Assembly: GCA_040881785.1 (NCBI GenBank)
Contig: JBBECO010000253.1
Span: forward strand, 8,968-61,897
DNA: 52,930 bases
From: Vicinamibacterales bacterium
GTDB taxonomy: Bacteria; Acidobacteriota; Vicinamibacteria; Vicinamibacterales; 2-12-FULL-66-21
Direction: 5' to 3'
The number at the start of each line of letters is the position of its first letter. Within the stretch, counting starts at the first letter, position 1. The notes under the pieces were generated by a model. That model was not told the DNA's origin, did no database searches, and worked only from the letters and a program-made list of their open reading frames with translations. The position numbers and the translations under genes are program-made. Positions 3,469 to 45,588 of this stretch are shown piece by piece.

Positions 3469-3486
3469 GAAGGGAGTTTAGCCTAC

Positions 3487-5346: not shown

Positions 5347-5510
5347 TTCACATTGGCTGATCCGGCTGACACCCCGGAAAGAGCAAGAACGTCGCCCTGT
5401 CTACCAGGCCGCTGAAAAAGGGCGGCCTGGATGGAAAATGGATGCGTTCTTCAGCCGTCCTGCTGGACGGCCCGTCCCGCCGGTTTGCCCGCAGGTATAC
5501 TGATCGCCGG

Positions 5511-30117: not shown

Positions 30118-30351
30118 GTGACCGACGACCCCTCCAAACGGTCCGGCCTTGCCGACAGCGTGCGCACGATCGGGGCGCTGAGCACGGTCGGGTTCTCGTT
30201 CGTCCTGGCGATCATGATCGGCGCCGGCGCCGGCTACCTGCTGATGACCCGCTTCGGCCTCGGCAGCTGGGTGTTCTTCCTGGGGTTCGCACTTGGCGTC
30301 GTCGCAGGGATTCTCAACGTCTACCGCGCGGCGGGGCGGTTCCTCAAGTAG
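30118..30351 (+). CDS. AtpZ/AtpI family protein
   Basis: Two TM segments with a G..GY...G pattern; first gene of the Fo cluster. Confidence 0.8.
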   Translation: MTDDPSKRSGLADSVRTIGALSTVGFSFVLAIMIGAGAGYLLMTRFGLGSWVFFLGFALGVVAGILNVYRAAGRFLK

Positions 30352-30356
30352 ACGCT

Positions 30357-30737
30357 GTGGATCCGCTCGTGAGGCGCATCGGGCGGGATTCGATCCTCAT
30401 CTGTCTGGGGGCGGCGGGGGCGGCGCAGTGGTTGTCCGGCTGGACCCTGGCCTCCGGGGTGCTCGGCGGCGGCCTGCTGATTGCGATCAGCTTCTATACG
30501 CTCGGGCATGGCGTGGCGGCGATCGTCCTTCAGGCGACGGGCGGAGGGTCGAGCCGGCGGGCGGTGGCGGGAGCGGTCGCGAAACTGGTGCTTCGCTACG
30601 CTTTACTCGGTTTTCTGGCGTACGTTATGATTGCGCGTTTGCGCCTGCACCCGATGGGGCTGCTGGTGGGCGCATCATCAGTGACCGCGGCCGCGTTCGT
30701 CGAAGCGGTCCGCCTTCTCGCGAAGAATCGTCCGTGA
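30357..30737 (+). CDS. atpI: ATP synthase subunit I
   Basis: About 4 TM segments, LRYALLG; directly upstream of atpB. Confidence 0.75.
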   Translation: MDPLVRRIGRDSILICLGAAGAAQWLSGWTLASGVLGGGLLIAISFYTLGHGVAAIVLQATGGGSSRRAVAGAVAKLVLRYALLGFLAYVMIARLRLHPMGLLVGASSVTAAAFVEAVRLLAKNRP

Positions 30738-30777
30738 TGTCCGGACCCGGGCCAAGCCCGGCCGGGCGAGAGTCTGA

Positions 30778-31593
30778 ATGGCCGCATCTGCAATAGAACA
30801 TCCTCTGTTGATCGTCGACGCCGTGAACGCGACCCTCGGGCCGGTCGTGCTGAAGGCGGGCGAGGCGGTCGGCTATCACTTCGAGAATCCGGCCGAACCG
30901 ATCCCCAACTACATGGTGATGATCGGCCTGATCACCGTCGTCATCACGGGTGTCGGGCTCCTGATCCGGTCGCGCCTCAGTGTCGAGAATCCCGGGAAGT
31001 TCCAGATCCTCCTGGAGGACGGCATAAACGCCGTCAAAGGACTACTGGAAGAGTGGATCGGGCCGTCCGGCGCGCGCTTTCTGCCGCTCATTGCGACGCT
31101 CGGCCTGTTCATCCTGATGGGCAACTACATGGGCCTGGTGCCGGGCCTGATGGCGCCGACGAGCAGCATCAATACGACGCTCGGCTGCGCGATCACCATC
31201 TGGGTCTACTACCACTACCAGGGCATCAAGGCGCAGGGGATCGGCGCATATCTGAAACACTTTGCCGTGCCGCCTGGCGCCCCGATCTTCATTGCGCCGA
31301 TCATGCTGCCGATCGAGCTGATCAGCCACTTCTCGCGCGTGATGTCGCTGTCGCTCCGGTTGTTCGGCAATGTGTTTGGCGAGGAGCTGGTCATTGCCAT
31401 CCTGTTCATGATCATTCCCTTCCTGGTGCCGCTGCCGATGATGCTGCTCGGCCTGGTGACCGGGGGCCTGCAGGCGTTCATCTTCATGCTGCTGTCGATC
31501 ATCTACCTGCAGGGCGCCGTGGCGGTGGAGCACCACCACGACGAGCACGGACATGATGCGCCGCATGGACATCAGGCGCCCGCAGCGGCGTGA
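30778..31593 (+). CDS. atpB: F0 ATP synthase subunit a
   Basis: PGKFQ..LE, N.MGLVPG, PTSSIN, SRVMSLSLRLFGN, LQAFIF. Confidence 0.96.
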   Translation: MAASAIEHPLLIVDAVNATLGPVVLKAGEAVGYHFENPAEPIPNYMVMIGLITVVITGVGLLIRSRLSVENPGKFQILLEDGINAVKGLLEEWIGPSGARFLPLIATLGLFILMGNYMGLVPGLMAPTSSINTTLGCAITIWVYYHYQGIKAQGIGAYLKHFAVPPGAPIFIAPIMLPIELISHFSRVMSLSLRLFGNVFGEELVIAILFMIIPFLVPLPMMLLGLVTGGLQAFIFMLLSIIYLQGAVAVEHHHDEHGHDAPHGHQAPAAA

Positions 31594-31658
31594 TCCGCGG
31601 GTCGCATCGGATTCATCGTTCGTCATTTTTGATTGGTCGTTCAGAGGAGGCTGGGATC

Positions 31659-31997
31659 GTGAGTAAACGTTCAGTTCTGACAACCGCTCTCGTGATCGTC
31701 GCGGGCGCATTCTTCGCACCCGTCTACGCGCAGGAGGCCGTGAAGCTCGCGGACTCGAACCCGGACGTCGCGAGGTGGTCGATCATCACGGCCGGCTTCG
31801 CGCTGGCGTTCGCGGCGGGTCTCGCGGCGCTCGCGCAGGGCCGGGCCGTCGCGTCGGCCAGCGAGGCGATCGCGCGCAATCCCGGCGCGGCCGGCGACAT
31901 CCGCGGCGCGCTGCTGATCGGCCTCGTGCTGATCGAGTCCCTCGCGATCTACGTCCTGCTGATCGCGCTGATCCTGTTCTTCATCAAGCCCTTCTAA
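31659..31997 (+). CDS. atpE: F0 ATP synthase subunit c with N-terminal extension
   Basis: GAGGAGG SD and GTG start; AQG, IARNP loop, LIESLAIY. Confidence 0.95.
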   Translation: MSKRSVLTTALVIVAGAFFAPVYAQEAVKLADSNPDVARWSIITAGFALAFAAGLAALAQGRAVASASEAIARNPGAAGDIRGALLIGLVLIESLAIYVLLIALILFFIKPF

Positions 31998-32997: not shown

Positions 32998-33066
32998 CGG
33001 AGGGGGCGGAGGGAACGGAGTTTTTTCACAACGGAGGAACGAAGAAAACGGAGACACGAACGGAGG
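32874..33066 (+). repeat. Direct repeat copy 1: EamA 3' end plus ACGGAG arm
   Basis: Collinear with 39236-39426. Confidence 0.9.
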
Positions 33067-33127
33067 ACAATTTTTCAAACCGTGCGGGAACCCGACCAGC
33101 CCGCATCGACGGTCCCCGGGGTTGGGA

Positions 33128-33538
33128 TTACACTTGCCCATGAATCCTTGCAATGCCGCAGGCTTGGCCGCCGCGGCTGTGGCGGCCCTCACGGTCGTCG
33201 TTCCAGCGCAGCGGATCGCCGATCCGAACTTCGACACAACGATCGCCAAGCCCGCGTACGCGACCCGAGGCCCGCGCGTCCTCTTCGACGAGGCGCATCG
33301 GCAAGCGACGAAGGTCGACATCGTTGGCGTCGCGGCGGTCGGAGACGCGCGCGACGCGCACCTGTGCGTCTGACCGGCTGCCGGGATGGGCCTCCAGGTA
33401 CGCGGTCAACAGGACTCGAATTGCGCGTTCAGCCTGGGCATGACTGTCCGCCGCGACATAGACCGGCAGGCCGGGCACGTAGGCGCTCACGGCGCCGCTC
33501 GCCTCGGTCTCGAAGACAATTGGATAGTGGACCGTCAT
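33128..33538 (-). CDS. HicB-like antitoxin with disrupted C-terminus
   Basis: MTVHYPIVFETEASGAVSAYVPGLP..AADS..AERAIR matches the HicB N-terminal pattern; ATGA overlap with a HicA-like stop. Confidence 0.7.
   Translation of the reverse strand: MTVHYPIVFETEASGAVSAYVPGLPVYVAADSHAQAERAIRVLLTAYLEAHPGSRSDAQVRVARVSDRRDANDVDLRRLPMRLVEEDARASGRVRGLGDRCVEVRIGDPLRWNDDREGRHSRGGQACGIARIHGQV
33140..33298 (+). pseudogene. 5' fragment of an exported protein (DUF4350/GATase-like N-terminus)
   Basis: Signal peptide then ADPNFDT.IAKPAY...GPRVLFDEAH, after which it runs into hicB on the opposite strand; family assignment from memory. Confidence 0.5.
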
Positions 33539-33680
33539 GCGACACCTGCCTCGCGCAGGATGCGGTTGCCCAGCCGCCCGGCGTCCTTCTTCGCGTGAAC
33601 GGCAACCCAGCACGTGCCCGCCATTGGCGCTCCATTTGCTCCGGTGGCCCCTGGCTCGCTGAAAACCGGCGAGATCCACG
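33535..33680 (-). pseudogene. HicA-like toxin remnant
   Basis: C-terminus WVAVHAKKDAGRLGNRILREAGVA* is HicA-like; the upstream AGF...GH segment is in another frame; 5' boundary approximate. Confidence 0.55.
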
Positions 33681-33749
33681 GCCTGCTGACGGCATCCCGG
33701 CAGCCAGCCCGCCGTGCGCCGTGCCGACTGCCGGAAATCCAGAGGCCCC

Positions 33750-34889
33750 ATGGCGAAGCATCGGATTGCGTGGCTCCCCGGCGACGGTATCGGCGTGGAC
33801 GTGCTCGATGCCGCCCGCCTCGTGCTGGACGGCATCGACCTGGACGCGGAATACGTCCATGGCGACATCGGGTGGGAGTTCTGGCGCCGCGAAGGTGACG
33901 CCCTGCCGGAGCGGACGATCGAGCTGTTGGGCTCGGTCAATACGGCGCTGTTCGGGGCGATCACGTCCAAGCCGGCGCGACAGGCCGAAGCGGAACTCCC
34001 GAGCGGCCTCCGCGGCCATGGGCGCGTGTACCGCTCGCCCATCGTCCGGATGCGCCAGCTGTTCGACCTCTATGTCTGCCTGCGGCCCTGCAAGACCTAT
34101 CCGGGCAGCCCGCTGAACTACAAGGAGAATATCGACCTCGTGGTGTTCCGCGAGAACACCGAGGACCTGTACGCCGGCGTCGAGTTCAGCCCGGTACCGA
34201 CGGCGCTGGCCGACATGCTCGAGTCGATCTCGACGCCGTTCGCGCCGTTCGCACGCCTCTCAGGCGACCAGTACGCCATCTCCTGCAAGATCAACACGAA
34301 ACACGGCTCCGAGCGCATCGTCCGCGCGGCCTTCGACTACGCGCGTGCGCGGGGGCGCCACAAGGTGACCGTCGTCCACAAGGCCAACGTCGTGCGCGCC
34401 ACCGACGGGCTCTTCCTCGAGGCCGCACGTGACGTGGCGCGGGACTTCCCCGAGATCACGTTCGACGAAGCGAACGTCGACGCCATCACGATGTGGCTGC
34501 TGAAGGACCCGCACAACTACGACGTGCTGGTCGCGCCGAACCTGTACGGCGACATCATCTCGGACCTGTGCGCCCAGATGGTCGGCGGCCTCGGGTTCGG
34601 GTGCTCGGCGAACATCGGGAAGACGCTGGCCGTGTTCGAGCCCACGCACGGCTCGGCGCCGAAGTACGCCGGGCAGTACAAGGTCAACCCGCTCGCGACC
34701 ATCCTGACGCTGGTGATGATGCTCGACTGGCTCGGCGAGACCGACAAGGCCCGCCGGCTCGAGCTGGCGGTCGCGACGGTGCTGGCCGAGGGCCAGGTTC
34801 GGACGTACGACATGGGCGGCCCGAACTCGACGCTCGAGATGGCTGCCGCCGTCTGCGCGGCCATCCCCGAACCCGCGATGATCGCCTGA
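33750..34889 (+). CDS. Isocitrate/isopropylmalate/homoisocitrate family beta-decarboxylating dehydrogenase
   Basis: LPGDGIG, LFGAITS, SPIVRMR, RENTEDLY, HKANV, NLYGDIISD, FEPTHGSAPKYAG. Confidence 0.92.
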   Translation: MAKHRIAWLPGDGIGVDVLDAARLVLDGIDLDAEYVHGDIGWEFWRREGDALPERTIELLGSVNTALFGAITSKPARQAEAELPSGLRGHGRVYRSPIVRMRQLFDLYVCLRPCKTYPGSPLNYKENIDLVVFRENTEDLYAGVEFSPVPTALADMLESISTPFAPFARLSGDQYAISCKINTKHGSERIVRAAFDYARARGRHKVTVVHKANVVRATDGLFLEAARDVARDFPEITFDEANVDAITMWLLKDPHNYDVLVAPNLYGDIISDLCAQMVGGLGFGCSANIGKTLAVFEPTHGSAPKYAGQYKVNPLATILTLVMMLDWLGETDKARRLELAVATVLAEGQVRTYDMGGPNSTLEMAAAVCAAIPEPAMIA

Positions 34890-34908
34890 TACGTGCCACG
34901 CACGTCGC

Positions 34909-35823
34909 ATGGATTCCGAGATGCCCACTGTTCTCATTCACGAAGTCGGGATGCGCGACGGCCTTCAGGTCGAGCAGGCGATCGTGCCGATCGAACGGAA
35001 GTTCGCGTGGATCGAGGCGCTCGTCGCCTCGGGCGTGGACGTCGTGCAGGCAGGCTCGTTCGTCAACCCGGCGGTCGTGCCGCAGATGGCCGACACCGAT
35101 GCCGTGTTCCGTCACTTCAACGGACGGCGGACAGGAAAGACGAGGCTGTCGGCGCTCGTGCTCAACGAGAAGGGGCTCGACCGGGGCCTCGCGGCCGGCG
35201 TTACGTTCTTCTGCATGGGCGTGTCGGCGAGCGACACGCACAGCCGGAAGAACACCGGCCTTGGCACCGCGGACGCCATGACCCGCGTGCTCGGGGCCGC
35301 ACGCCGCGCGGTTGACGCGGGGGTGACGGTTCAGCTGTCGGTGCAGTCGGCGTTCGGCTGCGGCTACGAGGGCGCCATCCCGATGTCGCGCGTGCTCGAG
35401 ATGGCCCAGCTCTACCTCGACGCCGGCTTCCGCACCGTCAGCCTCGCCGACACCGCCGGGCATGCGACGCCGGACCGCGTAAAGATGGTGTTCGAGCGGC
35501 TGATGACCTCGGCGCCTGACGCCTCGTTCGCCTGCCACTTTCACGATGCCTACGGCCTCGCCATGGCGAACGCGTGCGCCGCGCTGGAGATGGGCGTCCG
35601 CTCGTTCGAGACCGCATTCGCCGGCCTTGGCGGCTGCCCCTTCACTGCCGTCGCGTCTGGCAATCTGTGCACCGAGGACTTCGTGCACATGCTCCAGATG
35701 CAGCACCTGCGGACCGACATCGACCTGGCGCCGCTCGTCGACCTGGCGCGCGAGGCCGAGGCATTCTTCGAGCGTCTGCTGCCGGGCAACGTGTATCGCG
35801 TGGGGGCCCGGCAATGCCAGTGA
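34909..35823 (+). CDS. HMG-CoA lyase-like DRE-TIM acyl-CoA lyase
   Basis: EVGMRDGLQ, SLADTAG, HFHD, GLGGCPF, GNLCTED; about 300 aa with no regulatory domain. Confidence 0.88.
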   Translation: MDSEMPTVLIHEVGMRDGLQVEQAIVPIERKFAWIEALVASGVDVVQAGSFVNPAVVPQMADTDAVFRHFNGRRTGKTRLSALVLNEKGLDRGLAAGVTFFCMGVSASDTHSRKNTGLGTADAMTRVLGAARRAVDAGVTVQLSVQSAFGCGYEGAIPMSRVLEMAQLYLDAGFRTVSLADTAGHATPDRVKMVFERLMTSAPDASFACHFHDAYGLAMANACAALEMGVRSFETAFAGLGGCPFTAVASGNLCTEDFVHMLQMQHLRTDIDLAPLVDLAREAEAFFERLLPGNVYRVGARQCQ

Positions 35824-37046
35824 GACTGCTCGACGGCATCCGCGTGCTCGACCTCACGAACGTGCTGGCGGGGCCGTTCGCCACTGCCCACCTCGCGCTG
35901 CTCGGCGCCGACGTGATCAAGATCGAGAACCCGGACGACGGGGACCTGGCGCGGAAGCTGGGCGCGGTGCCGGCGCTCAACGCGGCGCTGATGGGGACGA
36001 GCTTTCTCGCGCAGAACGCCAACAAGCGATCGCTCACGCTGAACCTGAAGGACGAGGCCGCGCGCGGGATCTTTCGCCGGCTCGTCCGCGACGCGGACGT
36101 CCTCGTCGAGAACTTCCGGCCCGGCGTGATGGCGCGCCTGGGCCTGTCGTGGGAGGCGCTGCGCGAGCTGAACCCGCGGCTCGTCTACTGCGCCATCTCC
36201 GGCTTCGGGCAGGATGGGCCAGACGCGCACAAGCCCGCGTACGACCAGATCATCCAGGGCCTGAGCGGCGTGATGGCCATCAACGGTGACGAGCGGCTCA
36301 ACCCGCTGCGCTGCGGCTTCCCGGTCTGCGACACGGTCGGCGGCCTCAACGCGGCGTTCGCCATCATGGGCGCGCTCTACCACCGCGAGCGGTCGGGCCA
36401 CGGCCAGTTCATCGACATCGCGCTGCTCGACTCCATCCTGCCGCTGCTCGGGTGGGTCGCGGCCAACTGGCTCATCGGGAAGCAGCCGCCGGTGCCGATG
36501 GGCAACGACAACTTCACGGCCGCCCCGTCCGGCACGTTCGTCACCGCCGACGGCCATATCAACATCGCGGCGAATCAGCAGGCGCACTGGGAGAGCGTGG
36601 CGGATATTCTCGGCGTGCCGGAGCTGAAGCACGATCCGCGTTTCGCGGCACGCGACGCCCGCAACCGCAACCGCGCCGCGCTCACGCCGCTGCTCGAGGC
36701 GAAGCTCGTGGAACGCCCGACGCACGAGTGGGTGGACCGGCTGACGCGCGCGGGCGTGCCGGCCGGCGGCATCCCGACGCTTCAGGAGGCGCTGGAGTCG
36801 CCGCAGATCGCGCACCGTGGCACCTTCCAGACCGTCCACGCCCCGGGCATCGGCGACCTGCGGCTGTTCACGATGACCGCGAAGTTCGAGCGCACACCCG
36901 GCTCGATCGACACCCCGCCCCCGCGACTCGGCGCCGACACCGACGTCGTCCTCCGCGAGGCGGGTTATTCGCCGGAGGAGATCGACGCCTTCCGCGAAGC
37001 CGGCGCGATCGGAAGCCCGGCAGTCAACGCGCCGATGACCCGATGA
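35814..37046 (+). CDS. CaiB/BaiF family III CoA-transferase
   Basis: LDGIRVLDLT..LAGP, LGADVIKIE, NANKRS, DVLVENFRPG, SGFGQDGP, catalytic YD, PPRLG. Confidence 0.93.
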   Translation: MPVRLLDGIRVLDLTNVLAGPFATAHLALLGADVIKIENPDDGDLARKLGAVPALNAALMGTSFLAQNANKRSLTLNLKDEAARGIFRRLVRDADVLVENFRPGVMARLGLSWEALRELNPRLVYCAISGFGQDGPDAHKPAYDQIIQGLSGVMAINGDERLNPLRCGFPVCDTVGGLNAAFAIMGALYHRERSGHGQFIDIALLDSILPLLGWVAANWLIGKQPPVPMGNDNFTAAPSGTFVTADGHINIAANQQAHWESVADILGVPELKHDPRFAARDARNRNRAALTPLLEAKLVERPTHEWVDRLTRAGVPAGGIPTLQEALESPQIAHRGTFQTVHAPGIGDLRLFTMTAKFERTPGSIDTPPPRLGADTDVVLREAGYSPEEIDAFREAGAIGSPAVNAPMTR

Positions 37047-38341
37047 CCCGATGGACCGATGATATGACTATTGCCCAGAAGATCCTCGCCCGCGCCAGCG
37101 GGCGCCCGCACGTCGCCGTCGGCGACGTCGTCGAGCCGGCCGTCGACCTCGCGATGTCACACGAGAACGCCGCGCTCGTGATCAACCAGTTCGCCGGGAT
37201 GTTCGAGGGAACGAGCCGCGAGCCGAGGGTCTGGGATCCGGAACGGATCGCCATCGTCTTCGACCACCGCGTCCCGGCCGAGAGCGCGAAGACCGCGACC
37301 AACCAGAAGCGGGTCCGCGAGTTCGTGCGGCAGCAGGGGATCGCGAAGTTCCACGACATCCGCGGCGACGAGGGGGGCATCTGCCACCAGATCCTCGCCG
37401 AGTCGGGCTACGACCGCCCGGGCGCCGTCATCGTCGGCACCGACAGCCACACGACGACGCACGGCGCGTTCGGCGCCTTTGCGTTCGGGATCGGCGCGAC
37501 CGAGATGGCGGCCGTGTGGGCGCTGGGGCGCGTGCTGAACGTCGAAGTGCCGGCCACGATCAAGGTCGTCGTGCGCGGCGCGCTGCCGCGCGGCGTCGAA
37601 CCGAAGGACGTCGTGCTGCGCCTCATCGGCCAGATCGGCGCCGAGGGGGCGAACTACCGTGTCCTCGAGTTCCACGGCGACACGATCGCCCGCCTGCCGA
37701 TGTCGGGCCGCCTGGTGCTGTGCAACATGGCCGTCGAGGCGGGGGCGACATCCGGGATTGTGCCCGCCGACGAGGTCACGCTGCACTACCTGCGGGCCGA
37801 GTGCGGCGTGACGGACCCGGTGGAGATCGCGCCGCCCGGCGGGGGCGCCGAGTACGAGCGGGTCGTGGAGGTCGATGCCGGGAACCTGGCTCCGCAGGTC
37901 GCGTGCCCCCACACGGTCGATCGCGTGAAGCCGGTCACCGACGTCGCCGGCACGCGCGTCGACCAGATTGTGATCGGCTCGTGCACGAACGGGCGGCTGG
38001 ACGACCTCGAGACGGCCGCGACGATCGTCGCCGGCCATCACATCGCGCGCGACGTGCGCATGCTCGTCTTCCCCGCGTCCTGGCGCATCTACCGCGAGGC
38101 GATGCGGCGCGGGTATCTGGAAACGCTGACGCACGCCGGCGCCGTCGTCATGAACCCGGGCTGCGGTTGCTGCCTCGGCGTGCACCAGGGGGCGCTCGGC
38201 GACGGCGAGGTCGCGCTGTCGACGACGAACCGGAACTTCAAGGGGCGGATGGGCAATCCGAAGGCGGATGTTTACTTGTGCTCGCCCGCCGTCGCCGCCG
38301 CCAGCGCCCTCACCGGCGTCATCACCGATCCGCGCGGGTGA
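37043..38341 (+). CDS. LeuC/HacA-like aconitase-family large subunit
   Basis: MTIAQKIL, FDH, GICHQ, GTDSHT.T.GA, CNM.VEAGA, IGSCTNGR, PGCGCC, STTNRNF.GRMG; alternative start at 37064. Confidence 0.93.
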   Translation: MTRWTDDMTIAQKILARASGRPHVAVGDVVEPAVDLAMSHENAALVINQFAGMFEGTSREPRVWDPERIAIVFDHRVPAESAKTATNQKRVREFVRQQGIAKFHDIRGDEGGICHQILAESGYDRPGAVIVGTDSHTTTHGAFGAFAFGIGATEMAAVWALGRVLNVEVPATIKVVVRGALPRGVEPKDVVLRLIGQIGAEGANYRVLEFHGDTIARLPMSGRLVLCNMAVEAGATSGIVPADEVTLHYLRAECGVTDPVEIAPPGGGAEYERVVEVDAGNLAPQVACPHTVDRVKPVTDVAGTRVDQIVIGSCTNGRLDDLETAATIVAGHHIARDVRMLVFPASWRIYREAMRRGYLETLTHAGAVVMNPGCGCCLGVHQGALGDGEVALSTTNRNFKGRMGNPKADVYLCSPAVAAASALTGVITDPRG

Positions 38342-38349
38342 GGTCCTAC

Positions 38350-38859
38350 ATGCCAACTGTCGTGTTCGTTCTGGGCGACGATGTCTCGACCGATGCCATC
38401 TATCCGGGCCGCTTCATGGCCACCGTGCTGCCGTCCGAGACGCCGCAGCACGCGTTCGCCGACCACACGGCTTTCAACGCGAAGCTCAGGGCAGGCGAGG
38501 TCCCGCCCGGCAGCGTCATCGTGGCCGGGCAGAACTTCGGCTGTGGCTCGTCGCGCGAGCAGGCGGCGTCCTGCCTGAGAGGCCCCGACCTGACCGTCGT
38601 CGCGCGCGGCTTCGCCCGGATCTTTCTTCAGAACGCCATTAACCTGGGGCTCAGGACGATCATCTGCCCCGAGGTTGAGGCGTCGGAGGGGGACGAGCTG
38701 GAAATCGAGGCCGGCGAGGTGATCAACCGGGCGACGGGGAAGCGGTTCGAGATCGTACCGCTCCCCGCCGCGCGGCAGGCCATCGTGGATGCCGGCGGGC
38801 TAATCCCGTTCGTGCGCCAGTCGCTGATGCCAAAGCCGGGCGCGAGCATGCGGCGGTAG
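38350..38859 (+). CDS. LeuD/HacB-like small subunit
   Basis: GDDVSTDAIYP, NFGCGSSREQA, FARIFLQNAINLGL, AGGL. Confidence 0.93.
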   Translation: MPTVVFVLGDDVSTDAIYPGRFMATVLPSETPQHAFADHTAFNAKLRAGEVPPGSVIVAGQNFGCGSSREQAASCLRGPDLTVVARGFARIFLQNAINLGLRTIICPEVEASEGDELEIEAGEVINRATGKRFEIVPLPAARQAIVDAGGLIPFVRQSLMPKPGASMRR

Positions 38860-39235
38860 ACTGCACCCCCTTCGCGGCGGCAACGGTGCCGCTGATCTCG
38901 ACATGGGAGTTTGCCGCTCCTTTCCGTGCCTGTCAGTTCCCGCCTTGGCGCGGGTTTCCGTGCGGGCCGCCAGCGTCAGCGCCTTGTTCGTGGCCGCGTC
39001 GAACAGATGCAGACGCCAGCCCGGCTGCAGGTCGCGCTCGATGGGAAAGAACCGGAAGGCGGAATCGGCGGCCCAGTCGATCTCCACCAGCGCGCGGGCC
39101 GCGCCGCGCACGAGGGCCCTGCGGAACGTGGTGTCCCGTTCCCATTCGCCGTGGCGCGAGATGGGGTCGACCGGCTGCATTGATTGTAGCAGCCGCAACA
39201 GGGGACTTCGATGTCGATGATTAAACCCCATCCGC

Positions 39236-39426
39236 CGTCCCGATTGTCGCGATGGTGACGGCGGTCGTCATGCTGGGCGAGCGACTGACCATCCCGCGGG
39301 TCGCCGGGGTCGCCGCCGTGCTGCTCGGCGTGGCCCTGACGCGCGTGGGGCGGCGGTAACGGAGGGGACGGAGGGAACGGAGTTTTTCACAACGGAGGTA
39401 CGGGGCTAACGGAGGTACGAACGGAG
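39236..39426 (+). repeat. Direct repeat copy 2: orphan EamA 3' end (40 codons plus TAA) and ACGGAG arm
   Basis: Encodes VPIVAMVTAVVMLGERLTIPRVAGVAAVLLGVALTRVGRR*, 35/40 aa identical to the EamA C-terminus. Confidence 0.9.
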
Positions 39427-39560
39427 AAGGCACTTTTCTAGAACGCCGATGGGGCAGCAGCGGACCCGACACGTGCGTCTCGTCACCCACCGCCACTATC
39501 GTGTGGCCGGCTTGTTTCCAAGCGCTGGGATGTGCACGGATAGTGGCTGTGTCCCTGTCG

Positions 39561-39893
39561 TCATAAGACATTTGAACCGCGATCCCCGGAATGAATCTCG
39601 ACCGCCTCCTCGACTCGGATGACGAACACTTTTCCGTCTCCGGGCCGACCAGTGCCGGCGACCTCCTGAACGGTGCCAAGGATCTGCTGCAGCAGCTCCT
39701 CGGGTACGACCGTCTCAAGTTTGGCCATCTCCGTCTCGCCGTACTGCGGCGCATCGTCTGATGTGGCCGGCGTGCGTTTCCCGTAGCCACGGACGACAGA
39801 GACGGTGATTCCAGGAACGTTCGGGATCTCGTGTAACGCCTGAATCACTGAAGCCACGCGCTCCGGCCGAATGATCGACTTCACCTCGTACAT
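39561..39893 (-). CDS. PII-family protein linked to metal efflux
   Basis: KSIIRP, GITVS.V.GYG, KLETVV, TGRPGDGKVFV; ATG overlaps the czcA stop. Confidence 0.88.
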   Translation of the reverse strand: MYEVKSIIRPERVASVIQALHEIPNVPGITVSVVRGYGKRTPATSDDAPQYGETEMAKLETVVPEELLQQILGTVQEVAGTGRPGDGKVFVIRVEEAVEIHSGDRGSNVL

Positions 39894-42800
39894 CACAGTT
39901 CCACCTCCGGTCGTTCGCGCTCGAACCACCGATAGAGCGACGGAAGGACAAGCAACGTCAGCGCGGTCGACGTGATGAGGCCGCCGATGACGACAGTTGC
40001 AAGCGGTCGCTGCACCTCTGCACCCGCGCCGGTCGACAGCGCCATGGGCACAAAGCCCAGACCTGCAACGAGAGGCGCCATGATCATGGCCCGCATCTTT
40101 TCCATCGATCCGCGGATCGTCGCTTCGTGAAGACTCAGGCCCGTCTTGCGAAGCTCGTCGATGTGCGCGAGCAGCACGAGCCCGTTCATCACGGCCACGC
40201 CGAACAGCGCAATGAAACCGACACCGGCTGAGATGCTGAACGCCATGCCTCGCAGGAAGAGCGCGACGACCCCGCCCGTCGCGGCAATCGGAATGTTGAA
40301 ATAGATCAACACCGCCGGTTTCACGGCGTTGAAGGTGATGAACAGAAGAACGAAGATCAGGAACAGCGCGACTGGAAGCACCAGCGTGAGCCGCTTTGTG
40401 GCGCGTTGAAGGTTCTCGAACTGGCCCCCGTATTCGATGTAGTACCCCGTCGGCAGCTCGACCTGCGCCGAGATGGCCCGCTGCACGTCGGCGATGAAGC
40501 CACCAAGGTCGCGGCCCCGGACGTTCGCTTCGACGGCGATACGGCGGTGGATGTTCTCGCGGCTGATCTGGGCCGGTCCTTCCTCCAGGGTGATGTCGGC
40601 GAGTTGGGACAGTGGAATCATGCGCCCCTGCGCGTCGGAGACTTTGAGATTCCTGATGCTGTCCACGTTCTGCCGGTCCGCCAATGTGAACCGCGCCTGC
40701 AGCGTAAACCGGCGTTGTCCCTCGAGGACTTCTCCGACCTCGCGCCCGCCGATCGTCTGCACGACGTCCAGCACCTGAGATGCGTTGATCCCGTAACGCG
40801 CGATCTCATCGCGACGGATCTTCAATCGCAGATACGGGAGGCCGCCGGTCTGTTCCAGCTTGACGTCCGCGGCGCCCGGCACGCCGCTGGTGACGCGCGC
40901 GATCTCTGCGCCCACGCGTCGCAGTTCCTCCAGATCCTCACCAAACAACGTCACGGCCACGTCGGACCGAACGCCGGCAATCAGCTCCTGCACCCGCAGC
41001 TCGATGGGCTGCGAATAGCTGAACACGTTGCCGGGTACTTCCCTCTCCAGAGCCTCGTTGAACGCGGCGATGAGGTCTTCCTTGTGGCCGGCCGTCGTCC
41101 ATTCGTCCGGATCTTTGAGGATCACGTAAATGTCGCTCGTTTCGAGCCCCATGGGGTCGGTAGGGATCTCGGCCACACCTGTCCGTGACACGACCGTCAG
41201 CACTTCCGGGAAACGCTTCAACGTCTTTTCGATCAACGTCGTGCTCTTGATCGACTCGGTAAGAGAGACGCTCGGCAGCCGCCACGCCTGAAGAGCAACG
41301 GCACCTTCATCAAGCTTGGGGATGAACTCGCTGCCCATGAACGGCACGAGCAGGAGCGAAAGGGCGAACACGGCGACCGACACCGCAGCCGTGAGCCCCG
41401 GATGCGCCAGACTCCGGACCAGCATCGGCTGGTAGCGGGCCTTCAGCCACTCCATGATTCGAGGCTCGCGGTCGCTCATCTTGCCGCGAAACAGCAGCGC
41501 GGCCAGGACCGGCATCAGCGTGAGCGCGAGAATCAGCGAACCGACGAGCGCGAAGACGACCGTGAGCGCCATCGGCCTGAACATCTTCCCCTCAACTCCC
41601 TGCAGCGTCAGGATGGGGAGGTAGACGATGGTGATGATCAGAACGGCAAAGAATATCGGGCGGGCGACTTCTCGCCCTGCGTCTCGGATGATCTCCTCTC
41701 TCGAGGCGCCCGTGCGATGTTTCTCGCCGAGCCGTCGGACGATGTTCTCGATCATCACCACCGACCCGTCGACGATGAGGCCGAAGTCGATCGCGCCCAG
41801 GCTCATAAGGTTCCCCGACAGACCCGCCTGCACCATCCCGGTGAAGGCGAACAGCATCGAGAGCGGAATCGCCGCCGCGACGATGAGCCCGCCGCGCACG
41901 TTGCCGAGCAGCACCAGCAGCACGGCCACGACGAGAATGCCGCCTTCGATCAGGTTGGTCTCGACCGTGGCGATGGTTTTCTGGACGAGCTCCGTACGGT
42001 CGTAAAACGAATCAATTTCCACACCCTTCGGGAGACTCTGTTTGATCGTCTCGAGCTCCTCTCGCACGCGGGCCGCGACGACGCGGGAATTTTCACCCAT
42101 CAGCATCATCACGACGCCCGTCACGACCTCGCCCCGGCCGTCCCGCGTCACCGCCCCCTGGCGGATCCTCGGCGCGAAGACGGTCGTGCCCAGATTCTTG
42201 ATATAGACCGGGGTGCCCCCCTGTTCTGCCTTGACGACGATGTTGTCGATGTCCGATAACTTCTCGACGAGGCCCTCGGCGCGGATGACGTACTGCTCCT
42301 GCGCGCGTTCGATGTACCCACCGCCAGCATTGGCGTTGTTGCGTTCGAGCGCCTCGAAGACCTCGCTGAGCGGCACGTTGTACGACACGAGCTTGTTCGG
42401 ATCGAGCTGCACTTCGTATGTCTTCAGCTCGCCCCCGAAGGAGTTCACTTCGACGACGCCGGGTACGGACCGCAGCTTGAACGCAATATCCCATTCGAGG
42501 ATGCTGCGCAGCTCCATCGGCGACAGGCCCTCGCCCCGCACCTCGAATTGGTAGATTTCGCCGAGGCCGGTGCTGATTGGTCCCATCGTGGGCGTGCCGA
42601 GCCCCTCGGGGATGGCTTCGCGCGCGTCGGGCAGGCGCTCGAGCACGAGCCGGCGCGCGAAGTACAGATCCATGTCTTCGCGGAAGTAGATATAGACGGA
42701 GGACAGCCCGAACCTGGACACCGATCGGATCTCCTCGATGCCAGGCAGACCGCTCATGGCGGTCTCCACCGGGAACGTGATGAAGCGTTCGATCTCCAGC

Positions 42801-42970
42801 GGTCCAAGCCCAGGCGCCGTTGTCAGAACGAGCACCTGGTTTGGGGTCACGTCCGGCACCGCGTCGATCGGCAGGCGCAGCATCGAATTGACGCCGATGC
42901 CGATCAGCACCGCCGTCAGAATCAGGACGATGAACTTGTTTCGCAGCGAAAAATCGATGAGTCTGTGCAT
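39893..42970 (-). CDS. czcA: CzcA/CusA family heavy-metal RND permease
   Basis: IDAVPDVT, PISTGLGEIYQF, NLMSLGAIDFGLIVDGSVVMIEN, EGKMFRPMA, QRPLATVVIGG. Confidence 0.93.
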   Translation of the reverse strand: MHRLIDFSLRNKFIVLILTAVLIGIGVNSMLRLPIDAVPDVTPNQVLVLTTAPGLGPLEIERFITFPVETAMSGLPGIEEIRSVSRFGLSSVYIYFREDMDLYFARRLVLERLPDAREAIPEGLGTPTMGPISTGLGEIYQFEVRGEGLSPMELRSILEWDIAFKLRSVPGVVEVNSFGGELKTYEVQLDPNKLVSYNVPLSEVFEALERNNANAGGGYIERAQEQYVIRAEGLVEKLSDIDNIVVKAEQGGTPVYIKNLGTTVFAPRIRQGAVTRDGRGEVVTGVVMMLMGENSRVVAARVREELETIKQSLPKGVEIDSFYDRTELVQKTIATVETNLIEGGILVVAVLLVLLGNVRGGLIVAAAIPLSMLFAFTGMVQAGLSGNLMSLGAIDFGLIVDGSVVMIENIVRRLGEKHRTGASREEIIRDAGREVARPIFFAVLIITIVYLPILTLQGVEGKMFRPMALTVVFALVGSLILALTLMPVLAALLFRGKMSDREPRIMEWLKARYQPMLVRSLAHPGLTAAVSVAVFALSLLLVPFMGSEFIPKLDEGAVALQAWRLPSVSLTESIKSTTLIEKTLKRFPEVLTVVSRTGVAEIPTDPMGLETSDIYVILKDPDEWTTAGHKEDLIAAFNEALEREVPGNVFSYSQPIELRVQELIAGVRSDVAVTLFGEDLEELRRVGAEIARVTSGVPGAADVKLEQTGGLPYLRLKIRRDEIARYGINASQVLDVVQTIGGREVGEVLEGQRRFTLQARFTLADRQNVDSIRNLKVSDAQGRMIPLSQLADITLEEGPAQISRENIHRRIAVEANVRGRDLGGFIADVQRAISAQVELPTGYYIEYGGQFENLQRATKRLTLVLPVALFLIFVLLFITFNAVKPAVLIYFNIPIAATGGVVALFLRGMAFSISAGVGFIALFGVAVMNGLVLLAHIDELRKTGLSLHEATIRGSMEKMRAMIMAPLVAGLGFVPMALSTGAGAEVQRPLATVVIGGLITSTALTLLVLPSLYRWFERERPEVEL

Positions 42971-42983
42971 GTGCGCTCCCGCC

Positions 42984-44285
42984 TCAGTGCTCGTCGCCGA
43001 TGCGTTCACGCAGCAGCGCGGTCTTCAAGTAGAAACTGCCGGCGCCGACGACCATCTCCCCGGCCTTCACGCCGGACGCCAACTCGACCAGGTCGCCAGC
43101 GGTTGTACCGGTCTGCACGATTCGGCGCTCGAAGCGGGTCGCGGACTGCCTCACGAACACCACGCGTTGGTCATCGACCGTCTGTACGGCGCTCACGGGA
43201 ACGACAACCGCCGATCGCCGATCGCTGGTTGGGATCACAACTTTCACGAACATGTCGAGTTTGAGCGCGCCGTCGGCATTCGGGACGACGCACCGCACTT
43301 TGGCGGTGCGTGACGTCGGGTCAATGACGTCACTGACGTACGTCAGACGGCCCGTGAAGGCGCGGTCCGGATAGGCATCTGCCTTGATGGCGACATCCAC
43401 GTCCTTCCGGACCTTGCCCAGGTCCTTCTCGTACACATCCGCCTGGATCCAGACTGTCGAGAGATCAATAATGGTGAACAGCTCGCGCTCGGGTTCCACC
43501 ACCTCGCCGGCCGCGACGTCATATTTCGTGATGACGCCCGCAAACGGCGCGCGCAACACGCTGTGCGACGCCACCCGGTGGCCCGTGCGCCCCTCCTCGT
43601 CGGGCGAGAGGTTGGCGAGGTCCGTATCAGAAAGGCCAAAGCGGTGGATCTGCTCTTCCACCTTGGAGACGCGAGCTTTCTGGCTCGCGACGGCGGCCTC
43701 GGCGTTGCGAAACTCCGCCCGTCGCTGCTCGAGCTGCTGCTGGGCGATCGCTTCCAACTTGATGAGCGCTTCTGATCGCTCGAGCACCTTCTGTTTGACG
43801 TTGCGGTCGGTCTCGGCTTGGCGCAGCGAGGCGGCCTCGCTGAGATACTCCCCGATGAGCTCGCCGAGCGCGATGTTGTCGTAGACGACGAGGGGCTGCC
43901 CTGCCTGGACACGAGCCCCAAGACTCACGGACACTTTTTCGATCAGGCCGCGCGCGAGTGGGCGAACGTGCGCCACACGCGATTCCACCGGCGCCACGAC
44001 GCCTGTGACGTCGATGACTGCTGGCAGCACCTGCGTGTCCGCGCGCACGACTTCCAGCGACGCGTTGTTTTGCGCTGCTTCCGGGATCTCGACGACGCCT
44101 TGCGGCAGATCCGCGTTGTGCGTCGTTTCCTCAACGGGAGCGGCAGCGGTCGCAGGGTCGTTCTTGAGGAGCCAAATCGCCGCTGCGCCGGCCAAGCCAC
44201 CGGCGAAGACTGCCAGCGCCAGGGCCGCCGCTGTGAAGCGCCGTCCTGACGCCGCCGTGGATGGGGGTGTCGATGATGCGTTCAT
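42984..44285 (-). CDS. czcB: RND periplasmic adaptor (CzcB-like)
   Basis: N-terminal TM; LRAPFAG, DLSTVW..DVYE, SRTAKVR, VP.SAV. Confidence 0.9.
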   Translation of the reverse strand: MNASSTPPSTAASGRRFTAAALALAVFAGGLAGAAAIWLLKNDPATAAAPVEETTHNADLPQGVVEIPEAAQNNASLEVVRADTQVLPAVIDVTGVVAPVESRVAHVRPLARGLIEKVSVSLGARVQAGQPLVVYDNIALGELIGEYLSEAASLRQAETDRNVKQKVLERSEALIKLEAIAQQQLEQRRAEFRNAEAAVASQKARVSKVEEQIHRFGLSDTDLANLSPDEEGRTGHRVASHSVLRAPFAGVITKYDVAAGEVVEPERELFTIIDLSTVWIQADVYEKDLGKVRKDVDVAIKADAYPDRAFTGRLTYVSDVIDPTSRTAKVRCVVPNADGALKLDMFVKVVIPTSDRRSAVVVPVSAVQTVDDQRVVFVRQSATRFERRIVQTGTTAGDLVELASGVKAGEMVVGAGSFYLKTALLRERIGDEH

Positions 44286-44292
44286 ATACTCC

Positions 44293-45588
44293 TCAAGGCT
44301 GAATGGCTGGCGCGCCGATCGCCGCAGCCAGTTGGAACGTGCTGATGCGGGCCTCGTACAGGGCTCGGTTGTAGGTCCGGAGCGTGTCTCGAAATGCCCG
44401 CTGCGCGTCCAGGAAGTCGATCAGGTCGGCAGTGCCGAGACGATACGAGGCAAGCACGATGTCGCGAGATTCACGTGACCGGTTCAGATACTCGCGCTCG
44501 ATGTAGCTCACACGGGCGCGGCTCACCTCGACCGTGTGGACAGCCTGCTGCACGTCGAGCAGAACTCCTGTCGCGGTCGCGGCGGCGCGGTTGGCCGCCT
44601 GCCGGCGCTCAGCATCAGCGCGTTGCACGCCACCCTGGTTGCGGTTGAAGAGCGGAAGTGGCACGGTGACGCCGAAAACGACCGCGTCCGAACCGAAATC
44701 GCGCTTGTACCCGCCGCCGACCGTGATGTTCGGCGTCCGAAGAGCCCGCTGGAGGCGTGTTTCGGTGTCAGCGCGCTGGACCTCGCGCTGGGCGGCGACG
44801 AGATCCGGTCGGGCGGCGAGAGCCTGTGTTCGCAGCGAAGCCGCATTGACTGTCGGCGCCGGGGACACAGTCTGGCCTGCCGGGGCACCGGAATCGGTCA
44901 CGTTGAGTCTTTCAGCCACGTCGAACTCGACACTCAAGTCTGGTGCGTTGAAGAGCGCCAGCAGCGCGCTGCGGGCATTCCGTAGCGCGAGTTCCGCGGC
45001 AAACAGATCATCGACGAACGTCAGACGCTCGACCTGAACCCGCCGCAGCTCGCCGCCGGAGATCTCGCCGTGTTCGTAGCGGGCGCGGTTCAGCCCGATC
45101 ACTTTGTCGATCTCGTCCAGCGCCGCGCGGGCGACCTCGAGGTCCGCCTTCGCGAGGACCACGCCCAAGTACGTACGTCGCACCTCGAATTCGAGTCGCC
45201 GGCGCTGATCCTGAAATCCCGCCTCGGCCACAGCGATGCCCGTTTCGGCCGCCTGTGTGCGCAAGCGCCGGCGGCCGGCAAGCTCGATCTCCTGGTCGAT
45301 GCGGAAGGTCAGCTCCTGGTTGTTGACGAATGCCGGGCGCGACGGCTCGAAGAGCGGATAGCTCTCGGACTCGAACGACACCGCCGGGTTGGGGCGGAGC
45401 CTGGCATCCAGGCGCTGGGCCTGCGCGATCTCAACGGTGTTGCGCGCGGCAGCCAGGTTGGGATTGCGCTCGGTCGCAAGGCGCACGGCCTCCTCGAGCG
45501 AGAGCCGTGCTGGGACGACGAGGTCCTGCCCGCGCGCGTAGGCAGCCGTCGTCATGAACAGGACGGAAAACAGCAGTACACGAATCAT
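44293..45588 (-). CDS. czcC: Outer membrane factor (CzcC-like)
   Basis: Signal peptide; PNP, QEIELAGRRRLR, VPLPLFNRNQG, FLDAQR. Confidence 0.9.
   Translation of the reverse strand: MIRVLLFSVLFMTTAAYARGQDLVVPARLSLEEAVRLATERNPNLAAARNTVEIAQAQRLDARLRPNPAVSFESESYPLFEPSRPAFVNNQELTFRIDQEIELAGRRRLRTQAAETGIAVAEAGFQDQRRRLEFEVRRTYLGVVLAKADLEVARAALDEIDKVIGLNRARYEHGEISGGELRRVQVERLTFVDDLFAAELALRNARSALLALFNAPDLSVEFDVAERLNVTDSGAPAGQTVSPAPTVNAASLRTQALAARPDLVAAQREVQRADTETRLQRALRTPNITVGGGYKRDFGSDAVVFGVTVPLPLFNRNQGGVQRADAERRQAANRAAATATGVLLDVQQAVHTVEVSRARVSYIEREYLNRSRESRDIVLASYRLGTADLIDFLDAQRAFRDTLRTYNRALYEARISTFQLAAAIGAPAIQP

Follow-up and report, generated by a model that had tools for sequence, protein, structure and literature searches.

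A conserved five-gene cluster joins an HMG-CoA-lyase-type enzyme and a family III CoA-transferase to an archaeal-type isomerase and a dehydrogenase, and may encode a reversible alkylmalyl-CoA pathway

The DNA analysed here (the window) is a stretch of 52,930 nucleotides from a Vicinamibacterales bacterium (GenBank assembly GCA_040881785.1, contig JBBECO010000253.1, positions 8,968 to 61,897 of the forward strand). The source genome, called G000 below, is metagenome-assembled (3.87 Mb, 288 contigs, 91% complete) and the window is part of its contig C253. On the plus strand, the window carries a cluster of five closely packed genes, named here dh, hmgl, cot, leuC and leuD, which is the subject of this report. 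The dehydrogenase gene dh lies at 33750-34889 (379 aa; Pfam Iso_dh, 8.2e-88) and is followed by the lyase gene hmgl at 34909-35823 (304 aa; HMGL-like, 7.1e-40), for which public gene calls place the start at residue 5, 4 codons downstream (300 aa). The CoA-transferase gene cot (35814-37046, 410 aa; CoA_transf_3, 1.2e-124) overlaps hmgl by 10 nt and leuC by 4 nt (ATGA). The two isomerase genes, leuC (37043-38341, 432 aa; Aconitase, 6.2e-98) and leuD (38350-38859, 169 aa; Aconitase_C, 1.8e-11), are 8 nt apart. A reading of the letters alone (the sequence-only reading) had described these five genes and their families, and open reading frames (ORFs), Pfam and NCBIfam confirmed the description. 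That reading had also reported the absence of a synthase and of any further leu, ilv or lys gene: this holds for the 30 other window ORFs scanned with Pfam, none of which was a leu, ilv or lys gene, and for a profile search of the contig, in which hmgl was the sole HMGL-like match.

The hmgl product passed the cut-off of the NCBIfam model NF004283 for the hydroxymethylglutaryl-CoA (HMG-CoA) lyase subfamily (267 bits, cut-off 246) and scored 69 bits or less on the LeuA, CimA and homocitrate synthase models. Its best relative in the PDB was the HMG-CoA lyase of B. subtilis (1ydo, 196 bits), with 2cw6 also among the best. In 80 aligned rows, RDGLQ was kept in the listed variants (one REGLQ), H.H was kept and GLGGCPF was present in 78/80; we take R-D, H-x-H and GGCP to be the functional motifs of HMG-CoA lyase. 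The protein was assigned to the DRE-TIM metallolyases, HMG-CoA lyase subfamily, and is predicted to be a 2-alkylmalyl-CoA (citramalyl-CoA-like) lyase. The other HMGL protein of G000 is encoded beside a biotin carboxylase, reaches 424 bits and is 40% identical to the cluster enzyme. The existence of this paralogue and the linkage of hmgl to leuC, leuD and dh argue against a leucine-catabolic or ketogenic HMG-CoA role for the cluster lyase.

Residues 6-376 of the cot product cover positions 1-366 of the 366 in the CoA_transf_3 profile. No equivalog cut-off was passed: the best NCBIfam model was succinate-glutarate CoA-transferase (302 bits, cut-off 750) and the best PDB relative was the human succinate-hydroxymethylglutarate CoA-transferase (9br6, 252 bits). 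The motif KPAYDQIIQGLSG, within which the catalytic Asp of family III CoA-transferases presumably lies, was identical in 60/62 rows. The protein was classed as a family III (CaiB/BaiF/Frc-type) CoA-transferase, predicted to load CoA onto a 2-alkylmalate.

The leuC product scored 548 bits on PRK00402 (cut-off 385), 518 on hacA_fam (386) and 515 on IPMI_arch (410), and passed no equivalog cut-off. Five Cys columns, among them 314, 374 and 377, were at least 95% conserved in 54 rows. By these matches, leuC was assigned as the large [4Fe-4S] subunit of an archaeal-type isopropylmalate/citramalate/homoaconitate isomerase. The small subunit, LeuD, passed LEUD_arch (119 bits, cut-off 109) and scored 98-111 bits on the HacB models, for which the cut-off is 230. 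Its best PDB relative was the M. jannaschii isopropylmalate/citramalate isomerase subunit 3vba (107 bits), and the homoaconitase subunit 2pkp gave 94 bits. LeuD resembles these two M. jannaschii proteins in fold, in the GSSRE motif and in an alignment over nearly full length, and differs from them in the recognition loop (IYPGRFMATVLP). The loop residues are F-M-A-T in LeuD, Y-L-V-Y in 3vba and Y-L-R-T in 2pkp, i.e. Ala versus Val versus Arg. The segment IYPGR[FY]MATVLP was kept in 51/52 rows (one Cys variant) and GCGSSREQA in 52/52; the LeuD loop is a third, near-invariant loop type. The Arg of the Y-L-R-T loop is presumed to set substrate recognition by the homoaconitase small subunit, a role reportedly described by Jeyakanthan et al. 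in 2010. The lack of an Arg in the LeuD loop is a suggestive, not decisive, argument against methanogen-type homoaconitate as substrate. The text available of a later paper states, citing M. jannaschii work, that the loop determines substrate preference (PMC7308503).

The dh product passed no NCBIfam equivalog cut-off; the best model was AksF2 (332 bits, cut-off 540), and TIGR00169 (LeuB) gave 191 bits (cut-off 353). The best solved relatives were the small NAD-dependent isocitrate dehydrogenases (NAD-IDHs) 6ltf and 6m3s (254 bits) and the homoisocitrate dehydrogenase (HICDH) of Thermus (245 bits). When aligned with E. coli isocitrate dehydrogenase (Icd), dh retained R119, R129, R153, Y160, K230, D283, D307 and D311, as well as the Ser at S113; N115 was replaced by Ile and A117 by Arg. 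The equivalent of Asn115 was Ile in 61/61 orthologue rows, and the motif YRSPIVRMRQ was found in 59 of them (one of the other rows has L for M and one is more divergent). Icd positions 115/116 correspond to Ile-Val in dh and to Leu-Leu in E. coli LeuB and in the D-malate dehydrogenase DmlA, and position 117 to a conserved Arg in dh and a Lys in DmlA. The position aligned to Arg85 of Thermus HICDH is Val in dh. We take Icd Ser113 and Asn115 to bind the gamma-carboxylate of isocitrate, and Arg85 of Thermus HICDH to bind the distal carboxylate. The Ile at the Asn115 position argues against isocitrate as the substrate, and dh, a beta-decarboxylating enzyme of the isocitrate/isopropylmalate dehydrogenase family, is predicted to act on a 3-alkylmalate. 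At the cofactor site, K344, Y345, V351 and Y391 of Icd were retained and R395 was replaced by Gly; the APKY.G motif kept its initial APK in all orthologue variants printed. The Icd 344/345 equivalents are K-Y in dh and D-I in LeuB, DmlA, Thermus HICDH and the NAD-IDH 6ltf. Lys344, Tyr345, Val351 and Tyr391 are given as NADP determinants, and D-I-A as the NAD motif, in the parts available of two papers (PMC10574006, PMC5397045). Because K-Y, V351 and Y391 are all retained, dh is predicted to use NADP(H), which would be unusual for a LeuB-like enzyme.

For the assessment of conservation, a scan with the lyase, using one genome per species, gave 576 relatives, and neighbourhoods were counted at the best 80 loci. 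All five genes were on one strand at 54/80 loci, in the order dh-hmgl-cot-leuC-leuD at 51 and leuC-leuD-dh-hmgl-cot at 3. A contig end interrupted another 12 loci, whose remaining genes were consistent with the dh-hmgl-cot-leuC-leuD order, and 14 were incomplete despite room (11 with hmgl-cot only, 2 without dh, 1 with hmgl alone). The loci with all five genes spanned at least seven phylum labels; the labels met among the relatives were Acidobacteriota, Ignavibacteriota, Bacteroidota, Verrucomicrobiota, Chloroflexota, Calditrichota, Gemmatimonadota, Latescibacterota, Chlorobiota and others. Compared with the window proteins, the median identity was 73% for dh (60 rows), 58% for hmgl (80 rows), 69% for cot (71 rows), 71% for leuC (54 rows) and 67% for leuD (56 rows). 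Regions from genomes of the same phylum contained all five genes in 12/14 cases, and in 2 of these 12 dh-leuCD were convergent on cot-hmgl. Five genomes with a solitary hmgl-cot pair were checked: dh-leuC-leuD were present elsewhere at 71-75% identity in two and leuC-leuD elsewhere in a third, while the fourth had a leuC 52% identical beside a dh and the fifth nothing close. The five-gene arrangement is far beyond chance neighbourhood, and the behaviour of the set is that of two sub-operons (dh-leuCD and hmgl-cot) that stay associated. The expectation that the five genes would be found together elsewhere was thus borne out, and separated halves co-occurred in 2/5 genomes.

The division into halves bears on an alternative in which two functions merely travel together: hmgl and cot would be an HMG-CoA lyase and a succinyl-CoA:HMG, acetoacetate or glutarate transferase, and dh and leuCD would be separate. 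The sub-modules stand apart in 11/80 loci, hmgl passes the HMG-CoA lyase subfamily cut-off, and all the source names of the best 120 lyase homologues are 'hydroxymethylglutaryl-CoA lyase'. The nearest solved relative of cot is the human succinate-hydroxymethylglutarate enzyme, and the cluster hmgl was the only HMGL homologue (E<=1e-20) in 5/5 near-complete cluster bearers. The best solved relatives (1ydo and 2cw6 for hmgl, 9br6 for cot) and the retained lyase motifs are indeed what the cluster shares with HMG-CoA lyase and SUGCT. It differs from them in the score of hmgl (267 bits versus 424 for the leucine-type paralogue of G000) and in its linkage to leuCD and dh, which are unable to act on HMG: by family chemistry HMG, having no carboxyl on the carbinol carbon, is not a LeuCD substrate, and the linkage would be left unexplained. 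Since, in addition, all five genes stand together at most of the loci, the separated halves co-occur in the same genome and cot overlaps leuC in the window, mere co-travelling was judged very unlikely.

The catalytic motifs of all five products are intact, and the chemistries of the four protein families are known. LeuCD-type isomerases interconvert 2- and 3-substituted malates, and Iso_dh-type enzymes interconvert 3-substituted malates and 2-oxoacid plus CO2; HMGL lyases split 3-hydroxy-3-substituted acyl-CoAs to acetyl-CoA and a carbonyl compound, and family III transferases load CoA onto acids. A single reaction chain is proposed, because it is the only way to join all four: 2-oxoacid(n+1) + CO2 + NAD(P)H <-> 3-R-malate <-> 2-R-malate <-> 2-R-malyl-CoA <-> acetyl-CoA + 2-oxoacid(n). 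In the first step, dh would carboxylate the 2-oxoacid reductively (R-CH2-CO-COOH + CO2 + NADPH <-> 3-R-malate), and in the second, LeuCD would isomerise the product (3-R-malate <-> 2-R-maleate <-> 2-R-malate). The cot enzyme would then transfer CoA from a succinyl- or acetyl-CoA donor (2-R-malate + donor <-> 2-R-malyl-CoA) and hmgl would cleave the resulting acyl-CoA (2-R-malyl-CoA <-> R-CO-COOH + acetyl-CoA). With methyl as R, the first choice, the intermediates would be 2-oxobutyrate, 3-methylmalate, citraconate, (R)-citramalate, citramalyl-CoA and pyruvate; with isopropyl, the second choice, 2-oxoisocaproate would be converted to 2-oxoisovalerate. The physiological role would be the shortening of amino-acid-derived 2-oxoacids. 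The scheme was first outlined in the sequence-only reading; the present analysis restricts it to alkyl substituents, to NADP(H) and to a role outside biosynthesis. The idea, also put forward there, that lyase and transferase would act as a reversible, CoA-conserving substitute for the synthase is coherent as chemistry. Our preferred reading, held tentatively and with somewhat less than even confidence, is that the five genes encode one reversible alkylmalate/alkylmalyl-CoA pathway, mainly cleaving and non-biosynthetic, whose substrate and direction we infer.

The nature of R is also touched by the genes beside related clusters. The commonest neighbour family was a four-subunit 2-oxoacid:ferredoxin oxidoreductase, found beside 10/55 full clusters; in eight it lies upstream in the same orientation as the cluster, and in two it follows the cluster on the other strand. 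Its alpha subunit belongs to the VorB subfamily (545 bits, cut-off 399) and scored only 213 bits on the 2-oxoglutarate synthase model, which ties the cluster to short or branched 2-oxoacids and away from 2-oxoglutarate. Seven of the 10 oxidoreductase loci also contained a pyridoxal-phosphate enzyme of Cys/Met metabolism, with methionine gamma-lyases as the best models, below their cut-offs. A small alkyl group is the most likely R: dh has the Ile-Val pair, LeuD has Ala in its loop, the neighbouring oxidoreductase is of VorB type, LeuD has a citramalate isomerase as its nearest solved relative, and there is the reported precedent for (R)-citramalyl-CoA in the HMGL family. As a separate observation, the oxidoreductase gamma gene and dh are separated in 3 loci (L019:5922-6677, L025 and L033) by an ORF of ~250 aa that has no Pfam or NCBIfam match.

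These residues and neighbours also bear on a tricarboxylate version of the chain, in which citrate/isocitrate or homocitrate/homoisocitrate would be cleaved or synthesised independently of ATP via citryl-CoA. This would be a new oxidative or reductive variant of a branch of the tricarboxylic acid (TCA) cycle, or a reverse alpha-aminoadipate branch. Chemically, citrate differs from HMG in carrying a carboxyl in place of the methyl, and both HMG-type enzymes would thus need only small changes; dh has its best solved relatives among IDHs and HICDH, Icd Ser113 and the NADP motif are kept, and LeuC passes the hacA_fam cut-off. Nevertheless, the invariant Ile at the Asn115 position and the Val at the HICDH Arg85 position (given the carboxylate-binding roles presumed above), the LeuD loop without the homoaconitase Arg and an adjoining oxidoreductase of VorB rather than 2-oxoglutarate type all speak against it, and G000 has a citrate synthase, AcnA and NADP-IDH of its own. 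We consider the tricarboxylate version highly improbable; citrate/isocitrate and homocitrate (the earlier account had named citrate and homocitrate among candidate substrates) are disfavoured by the dh substitution and the LeuD loop.

The distribution of the cluster was followed through cot. In a quick maximum-likelihood tree of 41 rows, sequences grouped mostly by phylum label (11 label changes versus 20.2 in shuffles), the Ignavibacteriota and Bacteroidota labels were intermixed and the G000 cot stood beside rows labelled Vicinamibacterales (Acidobacteriota); this being a quick search, no transfer history was drawn from it. A cot orthologue (at least 61% identity, E<=1e-100) was present in 54/301 genomes of the phylum that were at least 90% complete, representing 33/192 genera. 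Only 3 genomes of the G000 order carried it, and most there were without cot. Among 513 plasmid records, the best cot homologue was 55% identical (all <60%); it came from Azoarcus and belongs to a different cluster, with a CitE-type 'citryl-CoA lyase' and shikimate genes as neighbours. The five-gene cluster is an accessory module.

The same 301 genomes were used for phyletic tallies, comparing the 54 cluster bearers (by cot) with the 247 others. The IlvC C-terminal domain was found in 142/301 genomes (25/54 bearers, 117/247 others), LeuA_dimer in 92/301 (24/54 and 68/247), the B12-dependent mutase (MM_CoA_mutase domain) in 279/301 (51/54 and 228/247) and canonical HMG-CoA lyase in 53/301 (8/54 and 45/247). 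These four tallies include G048, G145 and G023, none of which bears the cluster and on which no conclusion depends. Control genomes showed both LeuA_dimer and IlvC in 14/14 cases. Whether a genome carries the cluster is independent of branched-chain biosynthesis, the methylmalonyl-CoA route and the Liu pathway. On these counts, de novo Leu/Ile biosynthesis was rejected as the main role (neither LeuA_dimer nor IlvC is complementary to the cluster), and there was no support for the cluster replacing the methylmalonyl-CoA pathway (the mutase domain is present in nearly all bearers) or the leucine (Liu) pathway (canonical HMG-CoA lyase in similarly few bearers and others). Since its presence is independent of IlvC and the LeuA domain, the cluster is not regarded as a de novo Leu/Ile route, and the earlier suggestion of a 'synthase-free biosynthetic route', taken as one to Leu or Ile, is disfavoured; no IlvC was found in 29/54 bearers, some of them assembled in a single contig.

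Individual genomes were also inspected. No IlvC, LeuA_dimer or IlvA regulatory domain was found in the near-complete bearers G123, G163, G017 and G256 (1-3 contigs each), Thr_dehydrat_C was found in 0/5 near-complete bearers, and LeuA_dimer was not found in 4/5 cluster bearers from other phyla. In G000, LeuA_dimer and IlvC domains were not found (weak absences at 91% completeness) and an IlvA-type regulatory domain was present. Several side observations concern the same genes. The phylum-wide scarcity of LeuA_dimer and IlvC could reflect common branched-chain auxotrophy, or short LeuA forms without the regulatory domain; in the order of G000, most genomes have IlvC and are without LeuA_dimer. 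The only G000 gene passing the 3-isopropylmalate dehydrogenase equivalog cut-off (403 bits, cut-off 393) is on contig C86 (L091:1477-2520, minus strand), flanked by two acetyl-CoA acyltransferase (thiolase) genes (250-1464 and 2558-3766) and with no leu operon. On contig C188, a plus-strand gene (L085:1201-2652) encodes a LeuA/homocitrate-synthase-like protein of 483 aa without LeuA_dimer, scoring ~200 bits and under every cut-off; a citrate synthase gene is located ~1.5 kb away on the other strand.

Cleavage is probably the main direction of the chain. It is favoured because the cluster is not tied to amino-acid biosynthesis, because lyase and transferase are indispensable only for cleavage, and because of the NADP-type motif of dh; cells keep NADPH reduced, and NADPH is the usual reductant of reductive carboxylations. 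The pathway may run both ways. In its most specific form, the preferred reading would make the cluster a natural 'reverse 2-oxoacid elongation' present in many phyla, i.e. NADPH-linked reductive carboxylation, LeuCD isomerisation, CoA transfer and retro-Claisen cleavage of 2-oxobutyrate or 2-oxoisocaproate; this is possible, but on balance doubtful.

Run forward, the same chemistry would be a synthase-free, thioester-conserving elongation of 2-oxoacids from acetyl-CoA and pyruvate or 2-oxoisovalerate. The alkylmalyl-CoA formed would give up its CoA to succinate or acetate, and isomerisation and NADP-linked oxidative decarboxylation would yield 2-oxobutyrate or 2-oxoisocaproate, which could serve the supply of propionyl- or isovaleryl-CoA (fatty-acid primers), amino-acid interconversion in auxotrophs, or NADPH formation. 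The known modules that combine LeuCD with a LeuB-type enzyme are all elongating. The VorB-type oxidoreductase beside 10/55 clusters could convert the product to an acyl-CoA, and LeuA_dimer was not found in G000, in 30/54 bearers or in 4/5 bearers of other phyla. The text available of a review discusses the lyase and the succinyl-CoA transferase Sct as an indirect, theoretical way of reaching (R)-citramalate (PMC8307300). The tallies run counter to elongation: with no IlvC in 29/54 bearers, its products cannot feed de novo Ile there and Leu would need imported valine, and LeuA_dimer is not complementary to the cluster (24/54 versus 68/247). Moreover, the condensation of acetyl-CoA with a ketone gives a very low steady-state level of the acyl-CoA, the use of one synthase is simpler and universal, and an Rfam scan of the window and 5 related loci gave no T-box, leader or other element. 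Forward operation as the main role was rated unlikely.

Several points weigh against the cleaving pathway that we prefer. Because no step hydrolyses a thioester, the net chain should be near equilibrium by rough energetics. To our knowledge, every well-known LeuCD plus LeuB-type pathway runs in the elongating, oxidative direction, and NADP-IDH is also oxidative, so the NADP motif leaves the direction unfixed. Other routes for the same carbon exist, which leaves no evident need for the pathway: the B12 mutase is present in 51/54 bearers and G000 has a leucine-type HMG-CoA lyase, while canonical HMG-CoA lyase, in 8/54 bearers and 45/247 others, shows no complementarity with the cluster. Another such point is the conserved additional Arg of dh at Icd position 117. 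The VorB-type neighbour is confined to rows with Ignavibacteriota or Bacteroidota labels. The cross-tabulations were done by hand on genomes that are related, not independent, and absence of a domain means 'not found' only. Finally, the loop evidence is softened by the Pyrococcus small subunit, which is also without the loop Arg when aligned with LeuD and which, according to the text available, can substitute for a homoaconitase subunit (PMC7308503).

Neighbouring genes also bear on another alternative, in which the cluster would be a catabolic island and its substrates branched dicarboxylates of external origin, such as citraconate, (R)-citramalate, 3-methylmalate, other alkylmalates, or maleate/D-malate. 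Here LeuCD would act as hydratase/isomerase, transferase and lyase would cleave the tertiary alcohol, and dh would oxidatively decarboxylate the secondary-alcohol isomer as a second exit. Such a role would suit the isopropylmalate/citramalate isomerase relative of LeuD (3vba) and the Chloroflexus transferase and lyase reported to cleave (R)-citramalate. In the window, a gene for an EamA transporter precedes the cluster by 750 nt, and a LytS/LytTR pair stands beside the cluster in 4 loci of one genus and one other, of 14 regions. Clustering of the neighbours, however, revealed no transporter or regulator family conserved beside the cluster: with the exception of the oxidoreductase (the commonest neighbour, at 10/55), flanks were shared only among close relatives, and the EamA gene was present in 0/80 related loci. 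Two parallel exits for one substrate would be unparsimonious, and all five genes are so highly conserved across phyla that a linear pathway of five steps is suggested. The catabolic island is thus quite unlikely; catabolism of external citraconate or alkylmalates, one of the roles first proposed for the cluster, fits poorly with flanks in which neither transporter nor regulator is conserved. The regulatory pair itself, a LytS-type histidine kinase (PF06580) with a LytTR regulator (L122, L123, L125 and L131 of one genus, and L128), could be a lead to an inducing signal.

The alkylmalyl-CoA pathway proposed here was compared with known systems. It shares with the 2-oxoacid elongation module an archaeal-type two-subunit [4Fe-4S] isomerase and a beta-decarboxylating dehydrogenase, with complete catalytic sets and in one operon. 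It differs in that the defining Claisen synthase of the module (LeuA, CimA or homocitrate synthase) is absent from the cluster and an HMG-CoA-lyase-subfamily enzyme and a family III transferase are found instead. LeuB and HICDH of the elongation module have the D-I cofactor motif, whereas the cluster dehydrogenase has the NADP-type K-Y, and genomes carry the cluster independently of the IlvC and LeuA domains.

With Sct and Ccl of Chloroflexus aurantiacus, the cluster shares the same two protein families side by side and, reportedly, the chemistry proposed here for cot and hmgl: in work attributed to Friedmann et al. (from 2006 and 2007), a Chloroflexus family III transferase and an HMGL-type lyase are said to cleave (R)-citramalate. 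We know of no report linking Sct/Ccl to LeuCD and a dehydrogenase. Among 81 genomes of its class (a sample that may not include C. aurantiacus), only the Chloroflexota-labelled cluster bearer has a cot of >44% identity, and an HMGL gene was within 1.5 kb of 0/15 weaker cot homologues fetched. The sequence-only reading had drawn the analogy to Sct/Ccl; the shared protein families stand, and the analogy is narrowed to family likeness, since orthology is not supported by it. The available text of a review describes an (R)-citramalyl-CoA lyase (EC 4.1.3.46) and a succinyl-CoA:(R)-citramalate CoA-transferase (EC 2.8.3.20) (PMC8307300).

A 2026 preprint, in the part available, sets out an on-paper CO2-fixation segment that has in common with the proposed chain the carboxylation of 2-oxobutyrate and the sequence citramalate, citramalyl-CoA, pyruvate and acetyl-CoA (10.1101/2025.11.21.689712). 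That design uses an engineered ATP-dependent carboxylase and proceeds via methylaspartate and mesaconate, whereas the cluster, if cleaving, would use NADPH-linked reductive carboxylation and a LeuCD-type isomerase (10.1101/2025.11.21.689712). Full-text searches for the five-gene combination found no describing paper or characterised pathway, and neither 'isopropylmalyl-CoA' nor 'homocitryl-CoA' occurred among the full-text matches listed. Together with the names of the 120 best homologues, these searches agree with the initial impression that the combination is not a characterised pathway. The cluster therefore appears to consist of known enzyme families in an undescribed, widely conserved and apparently uncharacterised pathway architecture.

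The genes around the cluster in the window are housekeeping or unrelated: haem synthesis, IspG, UppS, CdsA, RseP, atpI/B/E-like genes, the EamA transporter, VWA proteins and an RND efflux operon. An AtpI-like gene (PF09527) and genes for ATP synthase subunits a and c stand alone at 30118-31997 (+), with the EamA gene next and no further atp operon. A gap of 750 nt (32998-33749) separates the EamA gene from dh; a long minus-strand ORF (33128-34042) overlaps this gap and the start of dh, with an N-terminus that looks HicB-antitoxin-like by eye and no Pfam match at E<=0.01. A scan for promoter-like sites found 0, the 4 terminator-like sites against 2.9 expected are uninformative, and no Rfam family (T-box and leader included) was found in the window or in the 5 related loci. 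Two ORFs directly after leuD (38886-39224, plus strand, and 39221-39790, minus strand) have no Pfam match. The RND efflux operon follows just downstream at 39893-45588 (-), with an AcrB-type pump, an HlyD-type adaptor and an outer-membrane factor, and a second outer-membrane factor gene is located far upstream of the cluster at 3706-5400 (-).

If the five genes form one pathway, the elongation chemistry of the Leu/Ile/Lys type would exist in a fully reversible, thioester-conserving form outside amino-acid biosynthesis, and a carbon-fixation segment so far proposed on paper only would have a natural counterpart. The cluster would then offer engineering parts, namely an NADP-type 3-alkylmalate dehydrogenase/carboxylase, an alkylmalate CoA-transferase and an alkylmalyl-CoA lyase, which could serve synthetic CO2 fixation via citramalyl-CoA or an ATP-saving 2-oxoacid elongation. 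Current automatic annotation, which names these genes HMG-CoA lyase, CoA transferase, isopropylmalate dehydratase and isocitrate dehydrogenase, would lead genome-scale models to misassign them to leucine metabolism and the TCA cycle. For the bacteria themselves, the pathway would be a B12-free, ATP-free, CO2-incorporating catabolic route for Thr, Met, propionate or Leu carbon, and so a new node in the central and amino-acid carbon metabolism of Acidobacteriota, Ignavibacteriota/Bacteroidota, Chloroflexota and others.

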